Shown here: positions 1,403 through 58,371 of the stretch, piece after piece
How positions within the stretch are numbered: position 1 is the stretch's first letter
Layout of the letters: every line of letters begins with the position of its first letter
NCBI GenBank assembly: GCA_965219925.1
Contig: OZ244795.1
Location: 1,031,395 to 1,095,394 of the forward strand
DNA length: 64,000 nt
Source of the DNA: Dehalococcoidia bacterium
GTDB taxonomy: Bacteria; Chloroflexota; Dehalococcoidia; Lucifugimonadales; UBA3495
Reading direction: 5' to 3'
The notes under the pieces: generated by a model
The model's database searches: none
What the model was told of the DNA's origin: nothing
Seen by the model: the letters and a program-made list of their open reading frames with translations, nothing else
Program-made: the position numbers and the translations under genes

Positions 1403-2452
1403 TTAGATCTCCACGCGGTACACACGGGCGGCGGTGTCATGGAACATGGCAGCGCGCTCCGTGGCCGAGTATCCGCTGGATAGCCGCTTGAAGGCGTTGT
1501 ACATCACATGGTACGAATAGGACACCTTGTCCACCGGGAAGTTGCTCTCGAACATGCAGCGATCCGGCCCGAACTGTTCGATACAGTGGTGCATAAACGG
1601 CGCCATCCCTTCCGCCAGTTCCTCGGAGCCGATGGGGACGGTCCGCTCGTGCCAGTCAAAGCCCGTGCGGGGCATCCCGATACCGCCCAGCTTGATCACC
1701 ACGTTGGGAGCCGACGCAGCGGCGGTGATGCCTTTGCGCCAGGTATCCAGCACTTCTTCCTCATTGTTGGCGTAGGGGCCGGTGCGCAACAGGCCGCCGA
1801 TGTGGTTCAGGATGATGGTCAGGTCGGGTACGGCTTTGGCGAAATCGGCCAGTTCCGGCAGCTGCGGGAAATACATCCAGCCTTCCAGCGTTAGGCCCAT
1901 GCTTGCCAGTACCCTGGCGCCGGCCCTGAAATTGTCGCTGGCCAGCTGACCCTGCTGGTTGTGCGCCGCCGTATTCTCGATCTCCGGATGCGGGTCCCAG
2001 GTAACCGAGTGGCGGATGCCGCGGAACCGGTTGGGGCTGGCTGCCTGCAACGCCTCCAGCGCCGGTTTCACGCCGTCGCCCAGGTTCAAATTCGCATGTC
2101 CCACGATGGATGCTGCCGCCCGACCCGGCCCGTAGAGTCCGTTGGCCGATGCCGCCGCCAATCCCTGCACAAATTCCACCTCGCCCACTGGACGCATTTC
2201 CTCCGGGCCCGTGATGCGATACATCGACCGGGCCTCCACGAACACGGTGGAGCGTACGTTGTGGCCGCTGTTGATATCTTCGGCCAGCTCGTGCAGCAGG
2301 TAGCGCTGGTAGGGAATCCGCTCGGTGCGGTAATCCCAAAAATGGTGGTGCGGGTCGCAAATTGGTATATCCGGCTCCAGCGTTTCTTCCTGCCGGGTGG
2401 CGAGCCAGTCATTGCCTCCGAATGGCATAATCAAGCCTCCTGTGCGTATCAT
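1403..2452 (-). CDS. amidohydrolase-2 family metal-dependent hydrolase (tandem paralog)
   Basis: 349-aa ORF alignable over its full length to the 317..1336 product (ICDPHHHFWD, VFVEARSMYR, RPVGEVEFVQG, FESNFPVDK shared). Start could be the internal MPFGG codon. Confidence 0.8.
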   Translation of the reverse strand: MIRTGGLIMPFGGNDWLATRQEETLEPDIPICDPHHHFWDYRTERIPYQRYLLHELAEDINSGHNVRSTVFVEARSMYRITGPEEMRPVGEVEFVQGLAAASANGLYGPGRAAASIVGHANLNLGDGVKPALEALQAASPNRFRGIRHSVTWDPHPEIENTAAHNQQGQLASDNFRAGARVLASMGLTLEGWMYFPQLPELADFAKAVPDLTIILNHIGGLLRTGPYANNEEEVLDTWRKGITAAASAPNVVIKLGGIGMPRTGFDWHERTVPIGSEELAEGMAPFMHHCIEQFGPDRCMFESNFPVDKVSYSYHVMYNAFKRLSSGYSATERAAMFHDTAARVYRVEI

Positions 2453-2600
2453 AGCGCCAGTCGGCCCCGGTTATGTAACCTGCTCCGCCGGCAGCGCAAT
2501 CATAACATAGGGGACGTGCCAAGAAAGGGGAGTGCAAAGCAGGGTTAATGCAGCGTGACAGGCGTTAATAGCAGATTGATGCCGTTTATTAACCGATCCT

Positions 2601-3881
2601 ATGCTGTTATTATTAGATTCAATCCACTTTATACTAGACAAGAGCAACGAATTGACAGCGAACGTGGCCTCAAATCCACCTGTTGACCCTCGCGTCCTAC
2701 AGCTCGGGAACGTATTCACCCCCGCTGCACCAATCCGGGACACCGATTTATTCTCGGGAAGGCGTAGCCTCATACTCAGGATTGCCGATGCGGTCAACCA
2801 GCGCGGAATGCACTGCATCGTGTTTGGTGAACGGGGCGTAGGGAAAACATCCCTGGCCAACATCCTGCCGGCCGTGCTCGGCCTCACAATGGACGAGGAA
2901 TTGGCAGTTGCCAGCATTAACTGTGACACTTCAGACACCTACACCAGCCTGATACACAAGCTGATGCAAGAGATAATCACTGTTCAAGAATTGCCTCGTC
3001 TGGGATTTGGCAACTATTCTTTTCGCCAGGAACATCCTTTATCTGCCGCTCTCCCCGACCAACCCACGCCGAATGATGTACGTATCCTGATGCAGTCGTT
3101 CTCTTCCAACTGGTTGCTCATCGTGGATGAATTCGACCGGCTTGCTGACCAGAATTCGATCCGACTGGTTTCCGATACCATCAAAACGCTCTCAGACCGC
3201 GGCGTATCTGCCACTATAGTACTGGTCGGGGTCGCCAATAACGTAGATGAACTCCTGAAGGAACACCGTTCGATTGAGCGGTGCCTAACCCAGGTCCTTA
3301 TGCCTAGAATGACTCGTGAAGAACTGACAGACATCGTAGATAGAGGACTGATCCAGGTAAATATGAGCATGGATGATTCGGTGCAATGGTACGTACCGGC
3401 TGTATCGCAGGGCTATCCTCACTACACGCATCTTCTGACCCTACATGCAGCTCGACAGGCTCTGGGCGCTGGACGCGATGTGGTTACCCGAAGAGATATA
3501 GAAGCAGCAATCGAATATGCTCTTACAATGACCGAACGCAGCGTCCAGGACAGCTACTCGTCAGCAGTATACAGCGCGAATCCGTCGGCTTTATATCAGC
3601 AAGTGTTGCTGGCTTGTGCGTTAGCAGAGGTTGGCGAATTTGACCATTTCAACGCACAAGCCGTGCGCGAGCCGTTGTCTCAAATAATGGATCGGCGCTA
3701 TGACATTCCAGCTTTCGCACGACATCTTGATGCGTTTTGTGATGATAGCCGTGGGCCAGCACTGATCCGCGAAGGGCAAAGTCGCCGTTATCAATATCGC
3801 TTCGCCATGCCACTAATGCGCCCATTCGTGCTGCTGAAAGGCATCGCCGACGGCCGTATTTCGGCAGACGTTTTGCGCTAA
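2601..3881 (+). CDS. orphan AAA/ORC-Cdc6-like P-loop ATPase
   Basis: 426-aa ORF with Walker A GERGVGKTS and Walker B LLIVDEFD. The helical C-terminal part resembles a winged-helix tail. The region is visibly AT-richer than its flanks. Exact start uncertain. Confidence 0.6.
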   Translation: MLLLLDSIHFILDKSNELTANVASNPPVDPRVLQLGNVFTPAAPIRDTDLFSGRRSLILRIADAVNQRGMHCIVFGERGVGKTSLANILPAVLGLTMDEELAVASINCDTSDTYTSLIHKLMQEIITVQELPRLGFGNYSFRQEHPLSAALPDQPTPNDVRILMQSFSSNWLLIVDEFDRLADQNSIRLVSDTIKTLSDRGVSATIVLVGVANNVDELLKEHRSIERCLTQVLMPRMTREELTDIVDRGLIQVNMSMDDSVQWYVPAVSQGYPHYTHLLTLHAARQALGAGRDVVTRRDIEAAIEYALTMTERSVQDSYSSAVYSANPSALYQQVLLACALAEVGEFDHFNAQAVREPLSQIMDRRYDIPAFARHLDAFCDDSRGPALIREGQSRRYQYRFAMPLMRPFVLLKGIADGRISADVLR

Positions 3882-3946
3882 CTCGTGCGCTTCCCCGTTG
3901 TCTTTGTTGTCTTTAATGTTTTTTCACAGGGAGATCCCAAACGACC

Positions 3947-5035
3947 ATGACCACACCCGCACCCCGACAGTCCCATCCCTACTACATGTACGACGCGATC
4001 TTGTCGCAACCCGACGCCATCGCATCGGTGTTGGCCAGCCAATCTGCCATCTGCGATGACCTGGGCCCGGCGCTGGCCGCCCGCCGCCGGATCTATCTGG
4101 TCGGCATCGGCACATCCTGGCACGCCGCGCTGGCCGCCCAGCAGATGCTCACCGCCGGCCCCGAAACCTTCGCCGGCAACTCTTTTGAGTTCTGCACCGC
4201 TCCTCCGCGCATAACACCGGACGATGCCGTGATAGTCTTCAGCCACCGGGGAACCAAGCGCTCATCCTACGATGCGCTGGACTATGCCCGGTCCACCGGC
4301 GCATTCACCGTAGCCATCACCTCAACTGCCCCCGGCCCGCGCATACAGGCTGCCCACCGGTTGATTCACACCGTATCCCCCGAGATTTCGTCGGCGTTCA
4401 CCGTCAGCTACACCACCGCCCTCACCGTCATCGCCATGCTCAACCGGGCCATTGCTGCCCAAACCGGCCGCAACGCCAGCGACCCCGCCTACAACCAGGT
4501 GGATGCACTGCCCAACCTCATGTCGCAAGTCCTGGCCGCCGAGGACGATGTCAGGGTAGTTGCGCTGGACAATCAATCGCGCCGCCGTTTCATCTCCGCC
4601 GGCTGGGGAGCCCACCGCGCCAACGCCTACGAGGTCGCCCTCAAAATCAAAGAGACCAGCCGCGCTGACTGCGAGGGCTTCCAGATGGAGCAGTTGCTCC
4701 ACGGCCCCTTCTGCTCCCTTGACTCCGATTGCCTGCTGACCCTCATCGCGCCGCCCGGCGACGACCGTGGCCGCACCCTCAACCTGTCCCTGGCCGCCCG
4801 CGAGCTGGGCGCACCGGTATGGGCGTTGATGGGCGAACCGGACTCGTCGGTGCTTGCCACGGGGGCCCGCATCTTCCCGTTGCCCGCTTGCCCGCCCAAC
4901 CTGATGCCCATCATCAGCGTGGCGCCCCTCCAGCTCTTTACCTATCACCTGGCGTTGGCCCGGGGCAGACACCCCGACCTGTTCCAGCAGGACGACCCCC
5001 TCCAGGCTGCCGCCCGCACTCACTACGACCTCTGA
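3947..5035 (+). CDS. SIS-domain sugar-phosphate isomerase/aminotransferase-like protein (GlmS C-terminal-like / FrlB-AgaS-like)
   Basis: 362 aa. Has the N-terminal YYMYDAILSQPDAI motif and two SIS-like repeats (LVGIGTSWHAA ...). Confidence 0.75.
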   Translation: MTTPAPRQSHPYYMYDAILSQPDAIASVLASQSAICDDLGPALAARRRIYLVGIGTSWHAALAAQQMLTAGPETFAGNSFEFCTAPPRITPDDAVIVFSHRGTKRSSYDALDYARSTGAFTVAITSTAPGPRIQAAHRLIHTVSPEISSAFTVSYTTALTVIAMLNRAIAAQTGRNASDPAYNQVDALPNLMSQVLAAEDDVRVVALDNQSRRRFISAGWGAHRANAYEVALKIKETSRADCEGFQMEQLLHGPFCSLDSDCLLTLIAPPGDDRGRTLNLSLAARELGAPVWALMGEPDSSVLATGARIFPLPACPPNLMPIISVAPLQLFTYHLALARGRHPDLFQQDDPLQAAARTHYDL

Positions 5036-18950: not shown

Positions 18951-19174
18951 GGCGTCATCGCTCCCTGTGAGGTTTGAGCCCGACAATGGCCGGGCGAGAT
19001 ACGCCAGTTTCCCACGCCGGCGCAAAGTGGGCAAGCGGGCCGATCATACGTTATTGCGAACGCAGCCTGGCGATCTCGTTCCGGCAACCGGTAATTACAG
19101 GTTTTACGGCAATGTAGCCGGATATAGTGTCAATGTACAAAATGGACCAAGTTGGAGGTATGTGGTTTGATCAA

Positions 19175-19897
19175 TTACCCCCGCAACGCCCGGAATCCAG
19201 AAATATCGCTGCAAGAATCGGCCCGCTCTGCGGCGGTTCGACCATACCCTCTCCAGTATTCTATAAACTCGGTCTCATATTCAAAAACTCCGCTGCCTTC
19301 TTGAAAATCTGCCAGCGTGCCTCTGATACTCCCAATGTTGGTGGTGTTCCCACTGCCTGCTTTGTCGCTGGCGATACGCCACTTTTCCTGCACAAAAACC
19401 TCGACGTCGGTGAACGGAACCGGTATGTCAGCCAATTCGTCAGTGGAATACACGATATTTGCATCGGAGTTGTTTACGTCGGCGCGGCGGTACACGAAAC
19501 CAATTATCCAGTGCTGATGGTATTCGTCGTAAGGGAACAGAATGTTCTTCGTGGGGTTTCCCAAAAAGCTCGTGTAACCTCCCAATGTATATGAGAAGCG
19601 CCCGTCTTCGTTGTCTTTATAGGTGGTTTTCACATCAATGGCGATTTTACGCTTGTCATCCAGGTTTCGGGCGAGCGTAAAGTCTGGATAATAATTTTGT
19701 TTCGTTGGCTCATACAACAACAAGCCACAATGTCGGGCGTAGGAGATCATTGCGCGCCGCGCTATTATCTCGAAAATGGTACTCAGGACTTTGGTGTCAG
19801 ACCCCAATGGATAAACTCGTCCGAGTCGATCTACGATTCCGCATACGCCGTATCCGTTTTCCAGGTTGGCTAGAAAATTCAGAATGTGTTGTTTCAT
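19175..19897 (-). CDS. type II restriction endonuclease, EcoRV family
   Basis: Blocks YGVCGIVDRLGRVYPLGSDTKVLSTIFE, QNYYPDFTL...KIAIDVKTTY (PD...D-x-K), FSYTLGGYTSF, HWIIGFVY and AGSGNTTNIGSI align with my recollection of R.EcoRV. The ATG overlaps the methylase stop (ATGA). AT-rich island. Confidence 0.85.
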   Translation of the reverse strand: MKQHILNFLANLENGYGVCGIVDRLGRVYPLGSDTKVLSTIFEIIARRAMISYARHCGLLLYEPTKQNYYPDFTLARNLDDKRKIAIDVKTTYKDNEDGRFSYTLGGYTSFLGNPTKNILFPYDEYHQHWIIGFVYRRADVNNSDANIVYSTDELADIPVPFTDVEVFVQEKWRIASDKAGSGNTTNIGSIRGTLADFQEGSGVFEYETEFIEYWRGYGRTAAERADSCSDISGFRALRG

Positions 19898-20736
19898 CCG
19901 ATGACCAGGCCTTCCTCGATTGCGTGCCTCAAGGACTCTGAGGAACCAACGTGATAATAATGAGAAAATGTTGCAATTTCGTACCCATTGAACCAATTGG
20001 ATAACCTGTTATTACTGCGAAATCTATTTTGTACCCACATAGAATACAAGAATCGGCAGGGCAAACGTTTCAGCGTCTGCACCAGTTCAAAGGCTTCCAT
20101 CTCGTCCCATCGGTTGTAATAATCCGTATGTCTCCCCAGATAAGGCGGGTCGGCGTATATGGAATCGCTATCATTTGCGTTGGCTAATACATCGCGCCAA
20201 TCAGATACGATGAACTCCCAGTCTCCGGCACTAATCGATTCGATAGTCCACTGGACCTGATTGCAAATTTTTGTGACGTACGCCGGCCGAAAGCGTTCGG
20301 GTTTACGGCAGAATGGGGTGTTGAACTTGCCTTGTTTGTTGAATCGTATCAAACCGTTGAAACAAGCACGATTAAGGAACAGGAAATCCAAGGGGTCCGC
20401 CGTGTCATTAAAACGGTCACGGATGTAATAATATCGGGCATCCCCTTCCGACAACAAACGTGCCCCCTCATGCTGCAGGTACGTCCGCACACCAGCGGCG
20501 GTAATGCGCTCGCTTTGCAAAGATTTATAGAAATTAATGATGTGGTAGCACGAATCTGAAACCAGCGCTCTGGGCGGTCTTATGTTCAACAACACCGCTC
20601 CTGACCCCAGGAATGGCTCTATCCAACGCCCTTGCCAATCCCAATCGATATGGCTCCCGATGAATGGCACTAACTTAGTTTTTATGCCCTGTATTTTTAT
20701 GGGCGGGGCTTTGGGTTTATTAGCGTAATCGAACAT
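19894..20736 (-). CDS. Dam-like N6-adenine DNA methyltransferase, M.EcoRV family
   Basis: PPIKIQGIKTKLVP, EPFLGSGAV (SAM binding), LDFLFLNRACFNGLIRFN, ADPPYLGRHTDY (motif IV). Confidence 0.85.
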   Translation of the reverse strand: MFDYANKPKAPPIKIQGIKTKLVPFIGSHIDWDWQGRWIEPFLGSGAVLLNIRPPRALVSDSCYHIINFYKSLQSERITAAGVRTYLQHEGARLLSEGDARYYYIRDRFNDTADPLDFLFLNRACFNGLIRFNKQGKFNTPFCRKPERFRPAYVTKICNQVQWTIESISAGDWEFIVSDWRDVLANANDSDSIYADPPYLGRHTDYYNRWDEMEAFELVQTLKRLPCRFLYSMWVQNRFRSNNRLSNWFNGYEIATFSHYYHVGSSESLRHAIEEGLVIG

Positions 20737-20845
20737 TCTCGTTTCTTGTCAGAATCTTTGATCGAATAGAACAGAGTTCCCTTTACGCCAGCATTATTAT
20801 AATGAGGTATGGTGATATGGAACAGTACAGAATGTCACTTTTTCA

Positions 20846-21064
20846 CTCCTCGCAATGAGGCGGCGCTGCTTGCGTGGTTTCACACCGCGCGCTAAAACCC
20901 GCAACAATCTTCCCAGCCCAAATCGTCGTGCCAATCCCGCTCCCTCCCCAATCCTGTTCGTCCAGGTTGGATTCGGCCCCCTCTTCCTCAATGGGAGAGG
21001 GCAGGGTGAGAGTAAAAACCCAGCACCAACCCATCCCCCCGCTCATCCTGAGCTTGTCGAATGG
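20846..21064. repeat. intergenic repeat cluster: B right arm (20846-20858), A (20978-21012), C (21041-21064)
   Basis: CTCCTCGCAATGA; CCCTCTTCC-TCAAT-GGGAGAGGGCAGGGTGAGAG; GCTCATCCTGAGCTTGTCGAATGG. Confidence 0.8.
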
Positions 21065-25767: not shown

Positions 25768-25844
25768 GGGCGGTTAGCTCAGTTGGTTAGAGTACTTGCT
25801 CGACACGCAAGAGGTCAGTGGTTCGAGTCCACTACCGCCCACCA
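25768..25844 (+). tRNA. tRNA-Val (anticodon GAC), CCA encoded
   Basis: Manual cloverleaf: acceptor GGGCGGT/ACCGCCC, D arm GCTC-AGTTGGTTA-GAGT, anticodon stem CTTGC/GCAAG with loop TCGACAC, variable AGGTC, T arm AGTGG-TTCGAGT-CCACT, then A-CCA. Confidence 0.85.
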
Positions 25845-25845
25845 T
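25800..25845 (+). repeat. attL core (46-bp direct repeat, 3' part of tRNA-Val)
   Basis: Identical to 58326-58371. Confidence 0.9.
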
Positions 25846-26248: not shown

Positions 26249-26277
26249 TTGACATACTGATAAAACTGGCCTACCAT
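26249..26277 (+). promoter_or_regulatory. sigma70-like early promoter candidate
   Basis: TTGACA (26249-26254), 17-nt spacer, TACCAT (26272-26277). Confidence 0.35.
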
Positions 26278-27318: not shown

Positions 27319-27542
27319 TTTACCTGAAGTGCGACCCTCCTTGCGGGCCAGACCCCTGCACCAGGCGCGGCGGCAAGATCAGGTGCCGCCTGGACCACCA
27401 TCTGGAGACGGAATTACTGGAGCTGGGCTGGAAGCCGGAATATCTGTTGGATCAACACGGCAACATATTCACGCGATGGCATCCGCCGGTGGGCGTTGTC
27501 CGACTCCGGCCGGACTTGGGCCCGCCGATGCTGGACGTATGA
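27315..27542 (+). CDS. hypothetical phage protein
   Basis: GTG start preceded by AGGAGGGGAC. GTGA overlap with the previous stop. Confidence 0.4.
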   Translation: MIYLKCDPPCGPDPCTRRGGKIRCRLDHHLETELLELGWKPEYLLDQHGNIFTRWHPPVGVVRLRPDLGPPMLDV

Positions 27543-29293
27543 AGGCAATGAACCACGCTGACCCCCTCCACGGCTGGCTCGACCGTATCCACCAGGGCGA
27601 CGCGCTGGAGGTGATGAGCCAAATGCCTGACGAGTGCGTCAACGTGGTGGTGACGTCGCCGCCCTACAACCTGCTCAATTCCAGCGGGAACGGGATGCGG
27701 AACAACCAGCAGGGGAAATGGCGCGGCCCCCGGGCCAAGGCGTTGTCCCAGGGCTACCCGGAGCATTCCGACGATATTCCCCGCAGCGAATACATCGACT
27801 GGCAGCGCCAGTGCCTAGAGGAGATGCTGCGCATCCTCACCAACGACGGCGCCATCTTCTACATCCACCGGGGGCGTATGCAAAAGGGCGTGGAGGAAAG
27901 CCCCCGCGACATCCTCAATGGTCTGTTCCTTCGACAGGAGATCATCTGGGCCAAGCCCGGCGGCATCAACCACACGCCCTATGCGATGACGCCGACTCAC
28001 GAGAGCGTCTTTCTGATCGTCAAAGACCCGTCAAGCGCCGGCTACCGACGACGCGAGGGCAGCGTGGACTACGGCTCTGTTTGGGCGATCAGCCGCGATA
28101 CGAAGGCTGATCACCCTTGCCCATTCCCGGTCGAACTGGCCCGACGCTGTATCCAGATGGTCACCGGGCCAGTGGCGCTGGACCCGTTCGTCGGCAGCGG
28201 CACCACCGCGGTTGCCGCCGTCCAGGAGGGCCGCGACTATATCGGCATCGACCTGAACGCCAAATACTGCAAATCCGCCCGGAAGAGGGTGCAGCTGGCC
28301 CGCCTGGACGACGATCTGAACCCGAATGCGGATAGCGACGAAGAGGGCTGGAAGGACTTCCAGGCCCACGGATTTGATACTCAATGGGATGCTTCGCAAG
28401 GTTCGCAAGGTTCGCAATCGGATGCTTCGCAAGGTTCGCAATCGGATGCTTCGCAAGGTTCGCAATCGGATGCTTCGCAAGGTTGGATGCGAGTAGCAGT
28501 CCGCTGGGATCACATCGACAGAGCCGTCTATGACCGCATAGCCGAAACGCAAAAGGCGACGAAACTCCAGGCCGTTCCCCTCAACCAACAAGAAATAGCA
28601 AATGAGTTGGATTGCAGCCCGCGCACCGTCAATAACGCTATTTCCAAACTCAAAAAAGAGGGTGCGCTCACTGTAAAATACCAGCGAGGGCCTAGCCTTT
28701 ACTCCGTATCATCAGAGATACCGCGGTGGCCTGTTCGCATCTCGGGGGGCCTTGGCACCCTCCCGCAAGGTTCGCAATCGGATGCTTCGCAAGGTTCGCA
28801 ATCGGATGCTTCGCAAGGTTCGCAATCGGATGCTTCGCATACCCGGGTCCGGGACCGGGAACCGGGGTTAATTAACCAAGTTAATCTCCGTGAGATTAAC
28901 CCGGTTCCCGGTCCCGGAGTCCCGGCGCGCGCGCGAGAAGACGCCGGCGCACGCCACGTTGCGCCGGACGCCGCGGTCTGCCCTTTGCACACGCAGGTCC
29001 ACCTCCAGGTTGTGACCACCTACCGTCCGCTGGTGGCCATCATGCAGGCCACCGGCGACGAGATCCGCTATTGCTACGGATCCAACGGCAGGTGCAGCTG
29101 GGTGCACTCCCGCGAACTCGGCATGGTGGTTGCCGCCGGCGGTCGCCGCCTCGATGCCCTGGGCATCGAGGCGGCTTACTACGACCTCCGATCTGACGCC
29201 CAGCCTGCCGCCGGTAGCAACAAGGACACCAGCCGCACCGGCTACCTGGACAGCTACCGCCGCCGCCACGGGAGGCTCCCGTGGGAAGGATAA
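27539..29293 (+). CDS. beta-class DNA methyltransferase (SPPY, N4-C-like) fused to repeat-flanked winged-HTH and C-terminal domain
   Basis: Motif IV VVTSPPYNL precedes motif I LDPFVGSGTTAVAA (PF01555-like order). Then a DASQGSQS repeat, QQEIANELDCSPRTVNNAISKLKKEGAL HTH, a second DASQGSQS repeat, and a C-terminal ~150 aa. Confidence 0.8.
   Translation: MKAMNHADPLHGWLDRIHQGDALEVMSQMPDECVNVVVTSPPYNLLNSSGNGMRNNQQGKWRGPRAKALSQGYPEHSDDIPRSEYIDWQRQCLEEMLRILTNDGAIFYIHRGRMQKGVEESPRDILNGLFLRQEIIWAKPGGINHTPYAMTPTHESVFLIVKDPSSAGYRRREGSVDYGSVWAISRDTKADHPCPFPVELARRCIQMVTGPVALDPFVGSGTTAVAAVQEGRDYIGIDLNAKYCKSARKRVQLARLDDDLNPNADSDEEGWKDFQAHGFDTQWDASQGSQGSQSDASQGSQSDASQGSQSDASQGWMRVAVRWDHIDRAVYDRIAETQKATKLQAVPLNQQEIANELDCSPRTVNNAISKLKKEGALTVKYQRGPSLYSVSSEIPRWPVRISGGLGTLPQGSQSDASQGSQSDASQGSQSDASHTRVRDREPGLINQVNLREINPVPGPGVPARAREDAGARHVAPDAAVCPLHTQVHLQVVTTYRPLVAIMQATGDEIRYCYGSNGRCSWVHSRELGMVVAAGGRRLDALGIEAAYYDLRSDAQPAAGSNKDTSRTGYLDSYRRRHGRLPWEG
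28388..28484 (+). repeat. 24-bp tandem repeat array 1 (iteron-like)
   Basis: GATGCTTCGCAAGGTTCGCAATCG, about 3.7 copies, with an extra GGTTCGCAA in the first unit. The complete units (28421-28444, 28445-28468) are identical and the other copies carry no substitutions. Confidence 0.9.
28764..28839 (+). repeat. 24-bp tandem repeat array 2 (iteron-like)
   Basis: Same unit as array 1, about 3 copies, with no substitutions relative to array 1. Confidence 0.9.
28842..28925. repeat. large dyad symmetry with AT-rich core
   Basis: CCGGGACCGGGAACCGGGGTTAAT (28849-28872) / ATTAACCCGGTTCCCGGTCCCGG (28895-28917) around TTAATTAACCAAGTTAATCT. Confidence 0.85.
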
Positions 29294-30594: not shown

Positions 30595-31497
30595 ATGACG
30601 CCCATCACCCAGCTGGCATTGGACGTGGCGATGAAGAAGTTCATCGCGGTGCGGCTCGCCGTGGGCGTGAGGGCGCCGGGCATCGCGCAATACCACTGGG
30701 CATTCAACAAGATACGCGCTTGCGAGTACCGGCTGCCCACCACCCTGGACGTGCTGCTGCCGGCCCTGATGGAGGGCAACCTGAGCCGGGAATCGCGGCG
30801 GTCCCTGGTGAAGTGTTGGCGGGCCTTCTTCCGCTTCGTGGAGGAGGAGTACGGCCTGCCGTCGCCGATCCGGAGACTGCCGTCCCTGCCCGGGGCGACG
30901 CCGTTGCCGCGGGTGCTGACAGCCCGGGAAATAACTGCGCTGGTGGGCTCCTGCCGGTTCCAGCGGAACCTGCTGGCGATCCTGACGCTACTGGACACCG
31001 GGGTCCGGATCGGCGAGTTGCACAGCATGAGGAAGGGGGACATCGACGGGACCGCGCTCACCGTGCGGGGCAAGACCGACACCAGGGTGACCGTCATATC
31101 GCCGGAGATCGCCGAAGCCCTGGAGGGAATCGGGGACGACACCCACTACTGGGTCGGGCAGCGGGGCCCGCTCACCGTGTCCGGACTGCAGCAGGTCGTC
31201 AAGCGGGCGTTCCGGGCGGCGGGCATCGCCGCGGGCAAGCAGAAGAATGGCCCCCACACGCTCCGCCATACCTTCGCAACCCAGTACCTGCGCGGCGGGG
31301 GCGGGATCTTCCAGCTGAAGGAGCTCATGGGACACGCCAGCCTGCGGTCGACGATGATCTACGTGCACCTGGCGGCCCGGGACCTGGACGCCGACCACCT
31401 GATCCACTCCCCGGCGCGGACGCTGGGTCTGATCGACGACCTGGTCAGGTCGGAGCCGCTGCCGGAGTTCTACCGGCCGACCAGGAAAGCAGCCTGA
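30595..31497 (+). CDS. tyrosine recombinase (phage integrase family), internal copy
   Basis: 300 aa. LLDTGVRIGEL (Arg I), HTLRHTFAT (H-x-x-R), LMGHASLRSTMIYVH (catalytic Tyr). Confidence 0.85.
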   Translation: MTPITQLALDVAMKKFIAVRLAVGVRAPGIAQYHWAFNKIRACEYRLPTTLDVLLPALMEGNLSRESRRSLVKCWRAFFRFVEEEYGLPSPIRRLPSLPGATPLPRVLTAREITALVGSCRFQRNLLAILTLLDTGVRIGELHSMRKGDIDGTALTVRGKTDTRVTVISPEIAEALEGIGDDTHYWVGQRGPLTVSGLQQVVKRAFRAAGIAAGKQKNGPHTLRHTFATQYLRGGGGIFQLKELMGHASLRSTMIYVHLAARDLDADHLIHSPARTLGLIDDLVRSEPLPEFYRPTRKAA

Positions 31498-35402: not shown

Positions 35403-36062
35403 TCATAGCAACCTGCCTGCCTCAGTTTCCGCTGGAACTTGGTCCCCCCACGCATCGAACCCCTCAATCCGTCTGCGAGCGAACATATCTAGCCGGGGAG
35501 AAGGCGTAACCCTTCTCAGTAGGGCGTATAGGCCGTCAGGTTTCGTGCAATTGGCAATCTGCCGGCCCCAAGCACCAGGCGCGGCATTGGGGTTGCGGGG
35601 CGCATCCCAAAGGTTCGCCGTCCGAAAATCCTTTGTGTCTAAGAATTTAGGCCGACCCTGCCGCCCGACGATGATCGGCTCCATGTTGTAAATCGGGTAG
35701 CCTACTGGCTTTGGCCCATGCGGTTTGACCCAGGCCATCATGCACATGTATTCCAATCGCCACGAATCCAGCAGGTCAAACGCCGGACGCACAAAACGAT
35801 TGATCACCCATAAGAACACCAGCGCGTCCGGTTCCAGCAGGGACGGAATATCAAGGGCTTGCAATCCGGCCAAGCTCATCAACGGGTAATCGAAATCCTG
35901 GTGGGCCGCTTTTTTATGGCACCAATGGCCCGTGCCGCTGGTGCCACCCCGACAGCAACCAGCGGCAGGCCCCTCCACCCAGGTTGATTTCGGGAAGCCC
36001 GCAGACTTCCAGGGCGGGTCGATCACGACGGTAGCGTATTTTGCATCTGGCAACGGTATCAT
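35403..36062 (-). CDS. MT-A70-family N6-adenine DNA methyltransferase
   Basis: VVIDPPWKS (DPPW motif IV), LVFLWV, YMCMMAWVKP blocks typical of MT-A70/IME4-like phage methylases. Confidence 0.8.
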   Translation of the reverse strand: MIPLPDAKYATVVIDPPWKSAGFPKSTWVEGPAAGCCRGGTSGTGHWCHKKAAHQDFDYPLMSLAGLQALDIPSLLEPDALVFLWVINRFVRPAFDLLDSWRLEYMCMMAWVKPHGPKPVGYPIYNMEPIIVGRQGRPKFLDTKDFRTANLWDAPRNPNAAPGAWGRQIANCTKPDGLYALLRRVTPSPRLDMFARRRIEGFDAWGDQVPAETEAGRLL

Positions 36063-40526: not shown

Positions 40527-41702
40527 TCACAGCGAGTACACGTAGACCCGATCTGTGATCTCATCCAAGACGTAGATGTCGATGCCGTCGCTGCTGATGC
40601 CATTTGGGCCGCTGTTGGCCGGGGCCAGCGCCCAGTTGGATAACGCCGCCCCTCCTGACGAGTACACGTAGACCCGATCTGCCCCGCCATCCACGACGTA
40701 GATGTCGGTGCCGTCGCTGCTGATGCCATTTGCGGCGCTGTTGCCCGAGGCCAGCGCCCAATTGGATAACGCCGCCCCTCCTGACGAGTATACGTAGACC
40801 CGATCTGCCCCGCGATCCACGACGTAGATGTCGGTGCCGTCGCTGCTGATGCCAAATGGGGCGCTGTTGCCCGAGGCCAGCGCCCAATTGGATAACGCCG
40901 CCCCTCCTGACGAGTATACGTAGACCCGATCTGCCCCGCGATCCACGACGTAGATGTCGGTGCCGTCGCTGCTGATGCCAAATGGGGCGCTGTTGCCCGA
41001 GGCCAGCGCCCAATTGGATAACGCCGCCCCTCCTGACGAGTACACGTAGACCCGATCTGCCCCGCCATCCACGACGTAGATGTCGGTGCCGTCGCTGCTG
41101 ATGCCAAATGGGGCGCTGTTGGCCGGGGCCAGCGCCCAGTCTCTCAGCAGCTCATATTTCAAAACAGTGCGGAGCCGTCGCCATGCTCCGCCCGATTTCT
41201 GGGCAACGTAATTGGCGTCGGTGCGCGACCAAACATCGCCGTCCGAGCCATCGGCGGCAACTGGGTTGCGGTTCCCGGTGCGGAAGTTGCCGATAATCAG
41301 GCCCTGAGTGAAATTTACCCGTTCCGCCTGGGCTATCGTCAACAGAAAGCCGCCGCTCACCAGCAAATCACGCCCCAGCTTCTTTTCCCCGTAAATGGTG
41401 GCGTCGCCGGTGCTGTTTGCGCCAAGCAGGATGCTGCTCGCAAGCGAAGGATCTCCGGCCCAAACTGCCAGCGTTCGGAAGTCGTCATATGCCTGGGCAT
41501 CGTTGGTATCGATGCTGGCGAACTGAATTTCGTTGCCGGTCAGCATATAGGCAATCGTCAGTTCTCTGACGACCGTGCCAATATCGGTAATCCCAACCAG
41601 GTTGCCCAGCAAGGCATCGCTGCCCAGCTCCATATGCGTCGGGTCGAAATGGCCCGAGAATAACGCGGCCGATCCCGCGTTGGTCAATGCAAGTATAGGC
41701 AT
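40527..41702 (-). CDS. tail fiber / receptor-binding protein with C-terminal beta-propeller-type (NHL-like) repeats
   Basis: 391 aa from the MPILALT start (1-nt overlap with the upstream stop). The C-terminal half is 5 tandem 42-aa units WALASGNSAPFGISSDGTDIYVVDRGADRVYVYSSGGAALSN. Confidence 0.65.
   Translation of the reverse strand: MPILALTNAGSAALFSGHFDPTHMELGSDALLGNLVGITDIGTVVRELTIAYMLTGNEIQFASIDTNDAQAYDDFRTLAVWAGDPSLASSILLGANSTGDATIYGEKKLGRDLLVSGGFLLTIAQAERVNFTQGLIIGNFRTGNRNPVAADGSDGDVWSRTDANYVAQKSGGAWRRLRTVLKYELLRDWALAPANSAPFGISSDGTDIYVVDGGADRVYVYSSGGAALSNWALASGNSAPFGISSDGTDIYVVDRGADRVYVYSSGGAALSNWALASGNSAPFGISSDGTDIYVVDRGADRVYVYSSGGAALSNWALASGNSAANGISSDGTDIYVVDGGADRVYVYSSGGAALSNWALAPANSGPNGISSDGIDIYVLDEITDRVYVYSL
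40540..41145. repeat. 126-bp tandem repeat, about 4.8 copies, inside the RBP gene
   Basis: Units 40615-40740, 40741-40866, 40867-40992, 40993-41118. Units 2 and 3 are identical at every base. Confidence 0.9.
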
Positions 41703-42808
41703 TAGGTCGCCACCTCCGTGATTTTGAATCCGCCGTAGGCATAGACCGGCGGGAACCGGACGCCGACGATGTTCCCCTTTACCACCATCCCCACCCGCAC
41801 CCGGGCAATGGTCTTGTGCCAGCTCCACTCCAGAGAAGCGATGTAACCCGACCGGCGCTCACCCTCCAAGTCAACGGCGATAACGGCCCCCAACCGCAAC
41901 CGTCGCGCCCGCTCGTACACAAAGGGCCGGTTCACCGTCAGGGTGAACGTCAGGTAGGTCAACCCGAATTCATAGGCATCGAAAATCCGTTCGGCCAATG
42001 CCGCCCGATTGCCGGATCGCAGGCCGCCCAGGACTTTGAATGACGAGGGCAATGTCCTAACCTGGGATGACGATGACGTGCTCGACGCGTACTCGGTTCC
42101 CTGCAGGGCCACGGCATTGACTAGACTCTGGTCGTTGAATGACAGGTCGTAACTGTCTTTCAGGTCGGAGGCGTCGAAAACATGGGAGCCGGAAATGGTG
42201 CCAATATCACGGATCACCTGCAGCCCGCCGTTGCGCAACGGCAACATCCGCGCCGGCGGACCCGCCGTGTTCAGAATGGCTTCCATCGCCGTCAATGCTT
42301 TGGCGGACACCTCCCAATTGGAAAGGGTTTCGCTGAAATCCGCTGCCGCTATCTGACGAAACTTCGCATCGGTCGGCCAAGCAGCCGCTGTCAGCACATC
42401 CCCCAGCGCCGCGGCATAGGAGTGATTGGATACCGACGCAACGGCAACCGTTTGCCGCAGCCGGTCAAATGTGCCCAACGCCGGAACGTCTACCACGGTT
42501 CGCCCCCAATTGGGAGTGTCATAATCCGGCGACGTCGTGATGCCGCGGAACCAGTCGTAAGTGCCTTGGTCCTGCTTCACTCGCACAATCACCAGCTGGC
42601 CTGCCTGATACGGCCGACTGTCCGCGCCGACGATATATCGAGCGGTGAAGCGGCTGGGCTCGGACCGCTGGAACGGGCGTGCCTCGTCCTGCCCCTCCCG
42701 AATGTCGACGGACTGCAGCAACCCCGTGGCCGCGGCGGGCACCGTGTCGGTGAAGTAGTCGCCTCCGGCCGGGGCGCCGATGTATATCTCTGGATAGAAG
42801 TCCGGCAT
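41702..42808 (-). CDS. phage tail protein (distal-tail/Dit-like by position)
   Basis: 368 aa, immediately downstream of the tape measure with a 1-nt overlap. Confidence 0.55.
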   Translation of the reverse strand: MPDFYPEIYIGAPAGGDYFTDTVPAAATGLLQSVDIREGQDEARPFQRSEPSRFTARYIVGADSRPYQAGQLVIVRVKQDQGTYDWFRGITTSPDYDTPNWGRTVVDVPALGTFDRLRQTVAVASVSNHSYAAALGDVLTAAAWPTDAKFRQIAAADFSETLSNWEVSAKALTAMEAILNTAGPPARMLPLRNGGLQVIRDIGTISGSHVFDASDLKDSYDLSFNDQSLVNAVALQGTEYASSTSSSSQVRTLPSSFKVLGGLRSGNRAALAERIFDAYEFGLTYLTFTLTVNRPFVYERARRLRLGAVIAVDLEGERRSGYIASLEWSWHKTIARVRVGMVVKGNIVGVRFPPVYAYGGFKITEVAT

Positions 42809-52726: not shown

Positions 52727-54085
52727 CTACCCCACCAGCCACCGGCGCGCGCGGGAATCGGGGTCCGGCTGCGCCACCACCCGCTCGCCGTCGAACGCGG
52801 ACCTGGTCCGCAGCCGCATCTCGCACAACCGGGCGGTCTGCACCACGATCCGCTTGCCGCCGTTCGGCAGATCCTCGGTGGTCGTCACGCTACCGGCGTT
52901 CGCCCAACCGGCCGTCACCCCGCGCACCAGGCCGGCGTTCAGCTTGGAGAGGAAGTTCTCGGCGTAGGTGGTGTTCGGCAGTTTGCGCCCCACGAACTCC
53001 AGGGCTTCGTCCGTATCCCGGAGCCGGAGGTTGCCCGCGATGGTGGAAGCCAGCACGTCGTCATAGGAATTTCCGGCCAGCAGCATGATCTCGCCGGCCA
53101 GGCTGTCGGTCAGCGAGCCGGGCAGGAACCGCACGTACTCGCCCCGGGCCATGCTCACCACGCCGTCCACGCCGTAGGGCAGGCTGCCCGCCACCCGGGT
53201 GCCGTCGACCTGGCGCAGCTCGGTCGCCTCGGGCGGGAACTCGACGAAGTTGATCTCGGCGTTGTCCTCGTCGTAGCTGCAGCCGTCCGCTTCGGCAGCC
53301 GTGACCAGATCGCCGACCGGCACGTCCAGCAGCTCGGCCAGCCCGCTCAGGCGCGGCATTGGCGGGCAGTTGATGACGCCGCTCAGGATGCCGCCGATGG
53401 TCGACGCCGTAATCCCCGCGGCCTCTCCCAGCTGCGCGTTGGTCAGTTCCTGTTCGTCCCGCAACCGCCGCAGGAGGTTGCCCAGCTGCTCGCCCCGCTG
53501 CCCGGCGTGGCCGCCGGCGCCGCAACCGGCGCAGCGCGCCTCGGGCTGCCAGAGACGGTGTTCAAGCTGCTGGTAGGCGGGCACCTGCTCCGCGTAGCGC
53601 AGGTAGTCGCTCCAGTTGCGGATCTGCAGCCCGCTGTCCGGATAGGCCGGCCGGTCCACGACCCCCCAGCCGTAGAGCCTGGCCTGCATCACCTCGCGCA
53701 CCTGGTTGACGACGCGTTCCGCCAGGACGCGGAACTCCAGCGACAGCCCGCGCAGCAGTCCGATCCGCACCTCGGTGTCGGTGGTTCGGCCCCAGATGGT
53801 TTCGGGCAGCACGACCTGGCCCCGCAGGTCCACCTCGGAGTCGGCCACCGAGAGGCCGGAGCCGGTGCGCGCCAGGGGCTGATCTCGGTTGTGCATCCGG
53901 TTCGCCATCAGGTCGAGGGCGGCCAGGTCGGCGCCGAACGCGCCCGGCATGATCCGCTCCCGGCCCCAGGGGAACACGGCCTCGTCGCCGTAGCGCACCA
54001 CGACGCCGTCGACGGTGCCCAGGGCGCCGTCCGCGGCGCGGTGTTCCAGCTCGCCGTAGCGGTATTCGGAGATGTGCTCAGGCAT
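52727..54085 (-). CDS. HK97-family (S78) prohead protease, duplicated domain with internal XRE-type HTH
   Basis: The N-terminal domain has VVVRYGDEAVF..ERIMPGAFG, MHNRDQPLAR (His), GLSLEFRV (Ser) and VVDRPAYPDS. The middle has LGNLLRRLRDEQELTNAQLGEAAGITASTIGGILSG. The C-terminal part repeats the protease layout with the catalytic positions replaced. Confidence 0.75.
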   Translation of the reverse strand: MPEHISEYRYGELEHRAADGALGTVDGVVVRYGDEAVFPWGRERIMPGAFGADLAALDLMANRMHNRDQPLARTGSGLSVADSEVDLRGQVVLPETIWGRTTDTEVRIGLLRGLSLEFRVLAERVVNQVREVMQARLYGWGVVDRPAYPDSGLQIRNWSDYLRYAEQVPAYQQLEHRLWQPEARCAGCGAGGHAGQRGEQLGNLLRRLRDEQELTNAQLGEAAGITASTIGGILSGVINCPPMPRLSGLAELLDVPVGDLVTAAEADGCSYDEDNAEINFVEFPPEATELRQVDGTRVAGSLPYGVDGVVSMARGEYVRFLPGSLTDSLAGEIMLLAGNSYDDVLASTIAGNLRLRDTDEALEFVGRKLPNTTYAENFLSKLNAGLVRGVTAGWANAGSVTTTEDLPNGGKRIVVQTARLCEMRLRTRSAFDGERVVAQPDPDSRARRWLVG

Positions 54086-58325: not shown

Positions 58326-58371
58326 TCGACACGCAAGAGGTCAGTGGTTCGAGTCCACTACCGCCCACCAT
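58326..58371 (+). repeat. attR core: displaced 3' fragment of tRNA-Val (not a functional tRNA)
   Basis: 46 bp identical to 25800-25845. No 5' half upstream. Confidence 0.9.

Follow-up and report, generated by a model that had tools for sequence, protein, structure and literature searches.

A putative theta-type replication origin inside the gene of its own initiator in a Dehalococcoidia prophage

Introduction

The lambda O protein binds DNA through its N-terminal part and recruits the helicase loader through its C-terminal part. The lambda origin, made up of iterons and an adjoining AT-rich tract, is nested centrally in gene O, whose product becomes longer when iterons are added (PMC7466680). 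In SPP1, oriL, with its AB boxes and unwinding element, is embedded in gene 38; the gene product G38P, which lacks an AAA+ domain, binds the AB boxes and passes the process on to a helicase loader whose gene lies downstream (PMC5737612). Here, we analyzed 64,000 nt of contig OZ244795.1 (positions 1,031,395 to 1,095,394, forward strand; hereafter the window) from the Dehalococcoidia bacterium assembly GCA_965219925.1. One gene in this window, at 27539-29293, belongs to a 32.6-kb prophage and fuses a DNA methyltransferase domain to a winged helix-turn-helix (wHTH) domain; its coding sequence holds two arrays of short direct repeats (iterons) and a dyad with an AT-rich centre. Judging from DNA and protein comparisons, the segment 28388-28918 is probably the theta-type replication origin of the prophage, located inside the gene of its own initiator, and we assign a probability of about 0.7 to this reading.

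Like lambda O/ori, including that of the Stx phages, the locus has direct iterons and an AT-rich tract in the middle of the putative initiator gene, where the iterons are translated as an inter-domain linker. The position of the gene is also lambda-like in two related loci (L001 and L004), in which it is an early-operon gene preceded by a cI-like (S24) and a cro-like gene. Unlike lambda O, however, the protein has no Pfam Phage_rep_O match and matches the O-like PHROG families 391 and 678 weakly (E = 1e-4 to 5e-3, over about 35 HTH residues). Lambda iterons are about 19 bp long with internal dyad symmetry and are bound by dimers, whereas the cores in the window are asymmetric 9-mers arranged head-to-tail, 9-15 bp apart. 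The locus further differs from lambda in having arrays on both sides of the binding-domain codons, an AT-rich element clamped by CCGG-repeat arms, an N4-cytosine-type methyltransferase fusion and a terminal CHCC zinc domain.

SPP1 G38P/oriL offers a similar comparison, with intragenic sites, an AT-rich element and an initiator-loader pair comparable to that of the related locus L013. Unlike SPP1, the protein has no Pfam G38P-family match, its PHROG matches to DnaD-like loaders are weak and cover the HTH, and the domain set of the family (methyltransferase, CHCC zinc domain and DnaA_N) is different. By these profile searches, the protein is not a member of the lambda O or SPP1 sequence families. 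Iteron plasmids (RepE of F, pi of R6K and RepA of pPS10; RepA_N of pSK41) also combine monomeric winged-helix initiators, direct repeats and an AT-rich element, and pSK41-type Rep N-domains (5kbj, 4pql and 4pt7) match the wHTH model at an E of about 1e-2 in Foldseek, among many regulators. Unlike the repeats described here, the iterons of plasmids mostly lie between genes, measure 17-22 bp and are helix-phased; the protein has no Rep_3 or RepA_N Pfam match, and it has one wHTH instead of a WH1-WH2 tandem. The methyltransferase part resembles N4CMT of Adineta vaga, M.PvuII and the CcrM-like fold, with a full-length match to N4CMT and an SPPY motif. To our knowledge, beta-class N4-cytosine methyltransferases are not known as fusions with an origin-binding initiator.

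Results

Two iteron arrays inside a methyltransferase-wHTH fusion gene

The gene, its protein domains and the DNA elements within it are located as follows, in window coordinates.

27539-29293, plus strand: fusion-protein gene, a continuous open reading frame (ORF) of 584 aa in the ORF listing
27638-28282, plus strand: beta-class N6/N4 DNA methyltransferase domain, aa 34-248 (Pfam PF01555, N6_N4_Mtase)
28388-28484, plus strand: iteron array 1, eight cores starting at 28391, 28400, 28409, 28424, 28433, 28448, 28457 and 28472
28481-28762, plus strand: wHTH domain, aa 315-408, with the recognition helix SPRTVNNAISKLK
28764-28839, plus strand: iteron array 2, six cores starting at 28769, 28784, 28793, 28808, 28817 and 28832
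28848-28918, no strand: dyad with GC-rich CCGGGA(A)-type arms at 28848-28866 and 28900-28918 and a spacer at 28867-28899
28979-29218, plus strand: putative CHCC zinc domain, C-terminal, with Cys481, His484, Cys512 and Cys519
29240-29290, plus strand: C-terminal tail motif GYLDSYRRRHGRLPWEG, which recurs in the L013 loader

The likely start codon, ATG at 27539, overlaps the stop codon of the upstream gene as read from the sequence, and the 584-aa protein is 100% identical to the database protein P0001. The encoded order is methyltransferase, array-1 linker, wHTH, array-2 linker, a PG-rich segment encoded by the dyad, CHCC zinc domain and C-terminal tail motif. PF01555 matched the methyltransferase domain with E = 3e-35 (122.6 bits against a cut-off of 26.7), and phrog_67 matched it at 1e-63. 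Its motif IV, encoded at 27656-27667, is SPPY, the form typical of N4-cytosine enzymes, and its best solved relative in the PDB was N4CMT (8S9N/8S9M, E = 1e-31; PMC10406627). By domain match and motif IV, the N-terminal domain is classed as an N4-cytosine-type, beta-class methyltransferase, which agrees with the fusion to an SPPY-type enzyme proposed in an earlier note made from the sequence of this DNA.

The wHTH domain had Pfam matches of the wHTH type, including HTH_Crp_2 and HTH_11, over aa 345-385, and its AlphaFold2 (AF2) model showed an H-H-H-beta-beta topology (pLDDT 70) with a single winged helix. The CHCC domain is kept in all subfamilies, with invariant C, H, C, C and W columns in the protein alignment, and its AF2 core had a pLDDT of about 90. 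A Foldseek search with this domain against PDB and BFVD gave nothing better than an E of about 1, and the Pfam scan gave no match in the C-terminal 120 residues of the 584-aa protein. The tail motif also ends several relatives.

Tandem Repeats Finder (TRF) reported a 24-bp period for both arrays, with 100% matches in each: 3.5 copies (score 166) at 28402-28484 and 3.2 copies (score 152) at 28764-28839. A repeat search showed that the two arrays share 76 nt of fully identical sequence. The absence of base substitutions described in the earlier note was thus seen, but array 1 opens at 28388 with a unit that is longer by 9 bp (TTCGCAAGG), which amounts to one 9-bp indel. These extra bases show the true unit to be a 9-mer, G(C/G)TTCGCAA, spaced alternately at 9 and 15 bp. 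The 24-mer that the note had taken as the unit is specific to the window; what is conserved at the DNA level is the 9-nt core. The 14 cores, at 28391-28840, are all on the coding strand and inside the ORF, the last core of array 2 being GCTTCGCAT. Array 1 is translated as DASQGSQ(G/S), and array 2 has the same orientation and reading frame. As the note had also described, the two arrays bracket the wHTH codons, and array 2 is followed by the dyad with its AT-rich core; this anatomy is established directly from the DNA.

TTCGCAA occurs 22 times in the 64-kb window, with 13 occurrences within the two arrays (450 bp). The 9 occurrences elsewhere compare with 8.5 expected by chance, which argues against the core being a general mutational hotspot, and TRF analysis of the prophage found no further iteron-like array.

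The core is kept as DNA among relatives

A whole-protein database search gave relatives with the full-length layout at 43-57% identity, and the loci of eleven relatives (L001, L003-L008 and L010-L013) were fetched for comparison of the DNA. Iterons inside the initiator's coding sequence were also present in these 11 homologous loci, and the 12 independent loci have a common order of array(s), wHTH, array and GC-rich dyad with an AT-rich centre, often followed by more cores. The family is rare: a search of 1.84 billion protein clusters gave 42 representatives at E <= 1e-3. The protein database and ENA assemblies supplied all true relatives; of the candidates from the genome and JGI metagenome contig collections, L009 was rejected as a hydrogenase locus and L014-L016 as cmk/ispH loci. 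A tblastn search against annotated phage and plasmid collections gave no relative, nor did a scan of viral contigs. In the literature searched, no account was found of a methyltransferase-initiator fusion, a DnaA_N phage initiator or such intragenic iteron arrays, so the remark in the earlier note that the fusion was not a recognized arrangement stands for that literature and for these collections.

The arrays encode hydrophilic Ser/Gln/Asp/Pro/Gly-rich linkers between folded domains, and their identical copies fit recent slippage, so the repeats could be mere low-complexity linkers grown by slippage, with the regularity of the DNA as a by-product. The comparison of relatives contradicts this explanation. 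The repeat peptide varies from DASQGSQS in the window to REDTQ, PEGSQ, PDDSP, DDSPS and DGSQGSH, each homolog having one repeat peptide unit on both sides of its wHTH, whereas the core G-N-T-(T/A)-CGC-(A/C)-A is common to eight subfamily-A loci. The peptide can differ while the DNA core persists because the frame and the spacer bases are free as long as the linker is tolerable. In L007, the core occurs in all three frames, with 15 copies in frame 0 (read G-S-Q or A-S-Q), 5 in frame 1 (S-F-A-T) and 1 in frame 2 (M-V-R-N), and L005 has one copy in frame 1.

Codon usage gave a consistent result. In seven independent loci, the array codons TCG, CAA, GGT, GAT and CCA are used at about 100%, whereas outside the arrays TCG makes up 16% of Ser and CAA 23% of Gln codons, and GGT, GAT and CCA account for 10%, 21% and 9% of their codon families. 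In the adjacent wHTH block (64% aa identity), codons are identical at 47% of same-residue positions. Synonymous sites have diverged beside the array while the core was kept, in three frames and with rare codons, and these sequence comparisons show that selection acts on the core DNA and not on the linker peptide. Since the dyad is also kept as an inverted repeat across all subfamilies, we regard the linker explanation as extremely improbable.

The earlier note had argued for DNA-level selection from the perfect identity of the repeats. The selection is established, but by the comparison between loci; as far as the sequences go, identical copies alone do not prove it, because recent slippage gives the same outcome. 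The note had also stated that its reading would fail if homologs kept the Ser/Gln-rich linker over freely drifting DNA and lacked the dyad. The reverse was observed, with a drifting peptide and a conserved core and dyad.

Some relatives show rearranged or shifted arrays. In P0125 and P0128, the block reads array-wHTH-array-wHTH, and the wHTH segment is duplicated, as expected from recombination between arrays. The repeat DNA is read out of frame in P0125, P0128, P0127 and P0143 (e.g., YPALG for DTPHS), P0127 and P0143 being short calls that are wholly or largely out of frame; they reflect true frameshifts or, alternatively, errors of low-coverage long-read assemblies.

The core changes with the recognition helix

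Subfamilies with other recognition helices have other cores, as listed here.

L008: GA(T/C)GTTACATC
L010: GGCC(CG/AC)ATG
L011: GTCCCGATG
L012: TGTCGT(C/G)ACA

The helices of L010 and L011 are related, and so are their cores. In subfamily A, a helix starting with S-L-R pairs with ACGCAA, and x-S-R-A-I pairs with CGCCA. The matching changes of helix and core are thus established for these loci, and in this small sample they form the pattern expected if the helix reads the core. Reverse-strand cores number 0-2 per gene, with none in 8 of the 12 loci, and the cores are confined to the gene, with nearly none in the rest of each locus.

A dyad with an AT-rich centre follows array 2

The dyad starts eight bases past array 2, and its arms are perfect 19-nt inverted repeats, or about 24 nt when one bulge is allowed. 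The spacer, which starts 27 nt past the last core, is 33 nt long and 70% AT within a 64% GC prophage, placing it in the top 0.1% of 33-nt windows; it is a putative DNA unwinding element. Fold prediction for the dyad region as single-stranded DNA gave -38.5 kcal/mol (z = -7.3). The dyad is translated as RDREPGLINQVNLREINPVPGPG, and relatives have a PGPG...N...PGPG protein segment at the same position.

The equivalent dyad, located just after the last pre-dyad core, outranks every other inverted repeat of the gene in 9 of the 12 loci; there it has CCGG-type GC-rich arms and spacers of 29-59 nt that are 50-76% AT. The remaining three loci have a weaker dyad at the same place. Two to four more cores follow the dyad in several loci, and in L005 the arms run on into an inverted copy of the core. 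A comparison of the window with L001 showed no strict hairpin covariation in the dyad arms, which look like repeated CCGGGA units more than a conserved stem. An RNA element was also considered and was dropped, as the Rfam scan of 25-36 kb gave the tRNA alone.

Links to replication and their weight

The wHTH domain matched 16 PHROG families, of which 7 are replication families and 1 is a repressor family. The matches to O-like initiator, DnaD-like loader and replication initiation PHROGs had E values of 1e-4 to 1e-3, and the wHTH of the homolog P0006 matched HTH_36. A Foldseek search with the wHTH model gave generic winged-helix proteins, including the plasmid Rep initiators 5kbj and 4pt7, and a PDB profile search gave a single weak match, to a regulator. 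The structure prediction for the middle domain, which the earlier note had proposed as a check for Rep/O-type winged helices, returned a winged helix, with phage-family profile matches mostly to replication initiators.

DnaA domain I binds the DnaB helicase. A segment resembling this domain (DnaA_N, PF11638) was found in homologs at 22.2-26.8 bits against a cut-off of 24.6, above the cut-off in 5 of 12 tested; scores were 22.8-26.8 in eight homologs (five of the eight above) and 22.2-22.5 in four others. The segment is present in P0003, P0006, P0007, P0020, P0044, P0047, P0053, P0059, P0062 and others, and the majority of the more remote homologs carry it. When these segments were combined into a profile, its only PDB matches were DnaA domain-I structures (4TPS, 3e-5; 2E0G, 1e-4; 8BTG, 4e-4). 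The segment stands before or after the zinc domain, varying by relative, and this change of position marks it as a shuffled module.

DnaA_N also occurs in a predicted loader. In L013, the gene for P0131 has arrays of GATTCGCA cores, a dyad and then further cores, and its end overlaps the start of a gene encoding DnaA_N and an IstB_IS21 AAA+ domain (30.9 and 37.6 bits). The order of initiator followed by loader is that of lambda O-P and SPP1 38-39. The L013 loader (2036-3022) contains GYLDSYRRRYGRLPWE, a motif that also ends the window protein; the form common to the loader and the C-terminus of the window protein is GYLDSYRRRxGRLPWE. The association of the family with DnaA_N and a loader is established by these loci, and the tail motif GYLDSYRRRHGRLPWEG looks like a candidate docking peptide common to initiator and loader. 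The early-operon position in L001 and L004 and the existence of versions without the methyltransferase also point to replication, as does a lack of alternatives in the window prophage: Pfam and PHROG searches of 25 selected ORFs gave no other replication gene, neither a helicase nor a primase or polymerase, and no other iteron-like array is present.

Several observations weigh against a replication origin. The likeness of the wHTH to initiator families is weak, and Foldseek did not separate initiators from MarR/GntR/ArsR-type regulators. The window protein has no PF11638 segment in the Pfam scan, and the window shows no obvious helicase loader gene. DnaA boxes occur as often as expected by chance, with none near the arrays. 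The core spacings of 9 and 15 bp are out of step with the helical repeat, whereas classical iterons are phased at roughly 11 or 22 bp. The identical copies point to recent slippage or gene conversion, and the copy number may be partly neutral. Finally, partition genes are found nearby: a ParB_N + HTH_ParB gene directly after the fusion gene in L001 and L007, a ParB-like gene 2.3 kb downstream of it in the window, and ParA/CbiA genes upstream in L003 and L008.

These neighbours would suit arrays that are wHTH sites with a role other than replication, either as a ParB-type partition centromere or as operator arrays that regulate or silence their own operon, and the wHTH fold is indeed common to many repressors, while plasmid iterons often double as operators. 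However, the window prophage is integrated at tRNA-Val with 46-bp att repeats, and integrated prophages need no partition; L006, L007 and L010-L012, flanked by host-type genes on at least one side, are probably integrated as well. The repeats vary in step with the wHTH that they enclose, and only one of the 16 PHROG matches of the wHTH is a repressor family against seven for replication. An AT-rich dyad, DnaA domain-I fusions and an overlapping DnaC/IstB-like loader would have no role in partition or repression. We therefore consider a partition or operator role rather unlikely.

The methyltransferase as an accessory domain

Versions of the protein without the methyltransferase exist in P0131, P0153 and P0140. 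Over the module from the array to the C-terminus, P0131 shares 86% identity with P0126, which does carry the methyltransferase. Because near-identical modules occur without it, the methyltransferase is, as the sequences indicate, an exchangeable accessory domain, and the modular nature of the fusion is established by these proteins. N4CMT, the solved enzyme closest to the window methyltransferase, methylates CpG with a loose flanking preference (PMC10406627).

Every core type and dyad arm contains CpG or CCGG, which raises a further proposal in which the wHTH-tethered methyltransferase methylates the cores and CCGG arms and switches the origin epigenetically, like Dam/SeqA at oriC. In the same proposal, iteron copy number would set the tether length between the methyltransferase, DNA-binding and helicase-recruiting domains. 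The methyltransferase-less modules, including L013, keep the arrays and the CCGG-rich arms, and this argues against the switch being essential. The CCGG arms are likewise weakened as a target of the fused methyltransferase by the L013 homolog, and we hold the proposal to be unlikely.

Two other DNA-modifying or DNA-binding components were observed. The prophage has a second methyltransferase gene, of the MT-A70 family, at 35403-36062 on the minus strand (E = 1e-14). A Phage_zn_bind_8 zinc finger occurs as a small protein in L003 (8154-8489) and L004 (9518-9799), upstream of the initiator gene, and in L005 (5445-5651), downstream of it. It is fused at the initiator N-terminus in P0005, P0007, P0011, P0126, P0131 and P0153, and it could be a second DNA-binding component of the module, e.g., for the CCGG arms.

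Prophage context

The prophage that holds the fusion gene is 32.6 kb long with 64% GC and is bounded by 46-bp exact direct repeats. Its ends and the promoter upstream of the gene are as follows.

25768-25844: tRNA-Val, tRNA gene
25800-25845, plus strand: attL, the 3' part of tRNA-Val, with an exact copy at attR
58326-58371, plus strand: attR, a 46-bp copy of the tRNA-Val 3' end
26249-26277, plus strand: sigma-70-like promoter TTGACA-17-TACCAT, by consensus match only

Upstream of the rightward, plus-strand early operon that reads through the fusion gene is an AT-rich gap, in which this putative promoter lies. The minus strand carries portal, large terminase and prohead protease genes.

The element could alternatively be a packaging (pac/cos) or site-specific recombination site, recognized by the terminase or by nearby tyrosine recombinases, in which the repeats would act as accessory arm-type sites and the dyad would form the core. 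In the window, a tyrosine recombinase gene is found 1.3 kb downstream, one to two such genes are near the gene in L005-L007, pac sites can be intragenic, and one weak wHTH match is to a small-terminase PHROG (E = 0.004). Against this, attP is already explained by the 46-bp tRNA-Val repeat at the prophage ends, and the dyad spacers are far longer than the 6-8 bp core spacers of tyrosine recombinases. The terminase genes are 7-10 kb away, and the cores change with the wHTH, not with the integrase or terminase. A packaging or recombination site is thus very unlikely.

Further features of the window were recorded. The tyrosine recombinase gene (30595-31497) occupies a central place in the early operon, at a distance of about 4.8 kb from attL and not beside the attachment site. 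A 126-bp tandem repeat at 40533-41138 (4.8 copies, 95% matches) lies inside the minus-strand ORF 40527-41828, which has weak lactonase/beta-propeller matches; the repeat probably encodes protein-level repeats of a tail or fibre-like protein. The minus-strand ORF 52727-54085 combines a Peptidase_S78 prohead serine protease domain with one Cro/C1-type HTH domain, which may be an unusual pairing or may result from a mechanical ORF call that joined two genes. Outside the prophage, in the host part, low-GC islands occur at 19000-21000 (0.49) and 3000-4000 (0.52), compared with about 0.63.

Discussion

For the origin proposed at 28388-28918, we infer binding, unwinding, helicase recruitment and origin firing in the following way. 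The wHTH (aa 315-408) would bind the direct G(C/G)TTCGCAA cores as monomers, at 14 sites in two arrays. The resulting nucleoprotein complex would destabilize the adjoining 33-nt AT-rich spacer between the GC-rich CCGGG-repeat arms, and the CHCC zinc domain with the GYLDSYRRRHGRLPWE tail would recruit the host helicase or its loader. In relatives, recruitment may be carried out by the DnaA domain-I module, fused to the initiator or located on a neighbouring DnaC/IstB-like loader. The arrays, being part of a coding sequence, also yield protein in the form of hydrophilic, low-complexity linkers. The methyltransferase probably shields the phage DNA from restriction and would be expressed and positioned together with the initiator.

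The features that are new in comparison with the described systems are the arrays bracketing the binding-domain codons, the CCGG arms read as PGPG, the CHCC domain without a structural relative and the methyltransferase fusion. If the proposed reading is true, the locus represents a new phage initiator/origin family in uncultured, GC-rich lineages. It would provide a predicted origin, a specificity code from helix to 9-mer, and candidate recruitment modules in DnaA domain I, the CHCC domain and the GRLPWE tail. The arrays could then serve origin prediction in metagenomic phages, and the module could serve as a compact origin-plus-initiator cassette for hosts without genetic tools.

The locus is also an unusually clear case of overlapping codes, in which a cis DNA signal outlasts frame changes while the peptide drifts. 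With the sites flanking the codons of their own binding domain, specificity and sites are held in one cassette, inseparable by recombination. The methyltransferase fusion further raises the possibility of a physical link between the methylation of phage DNA and the initiation of its replication.

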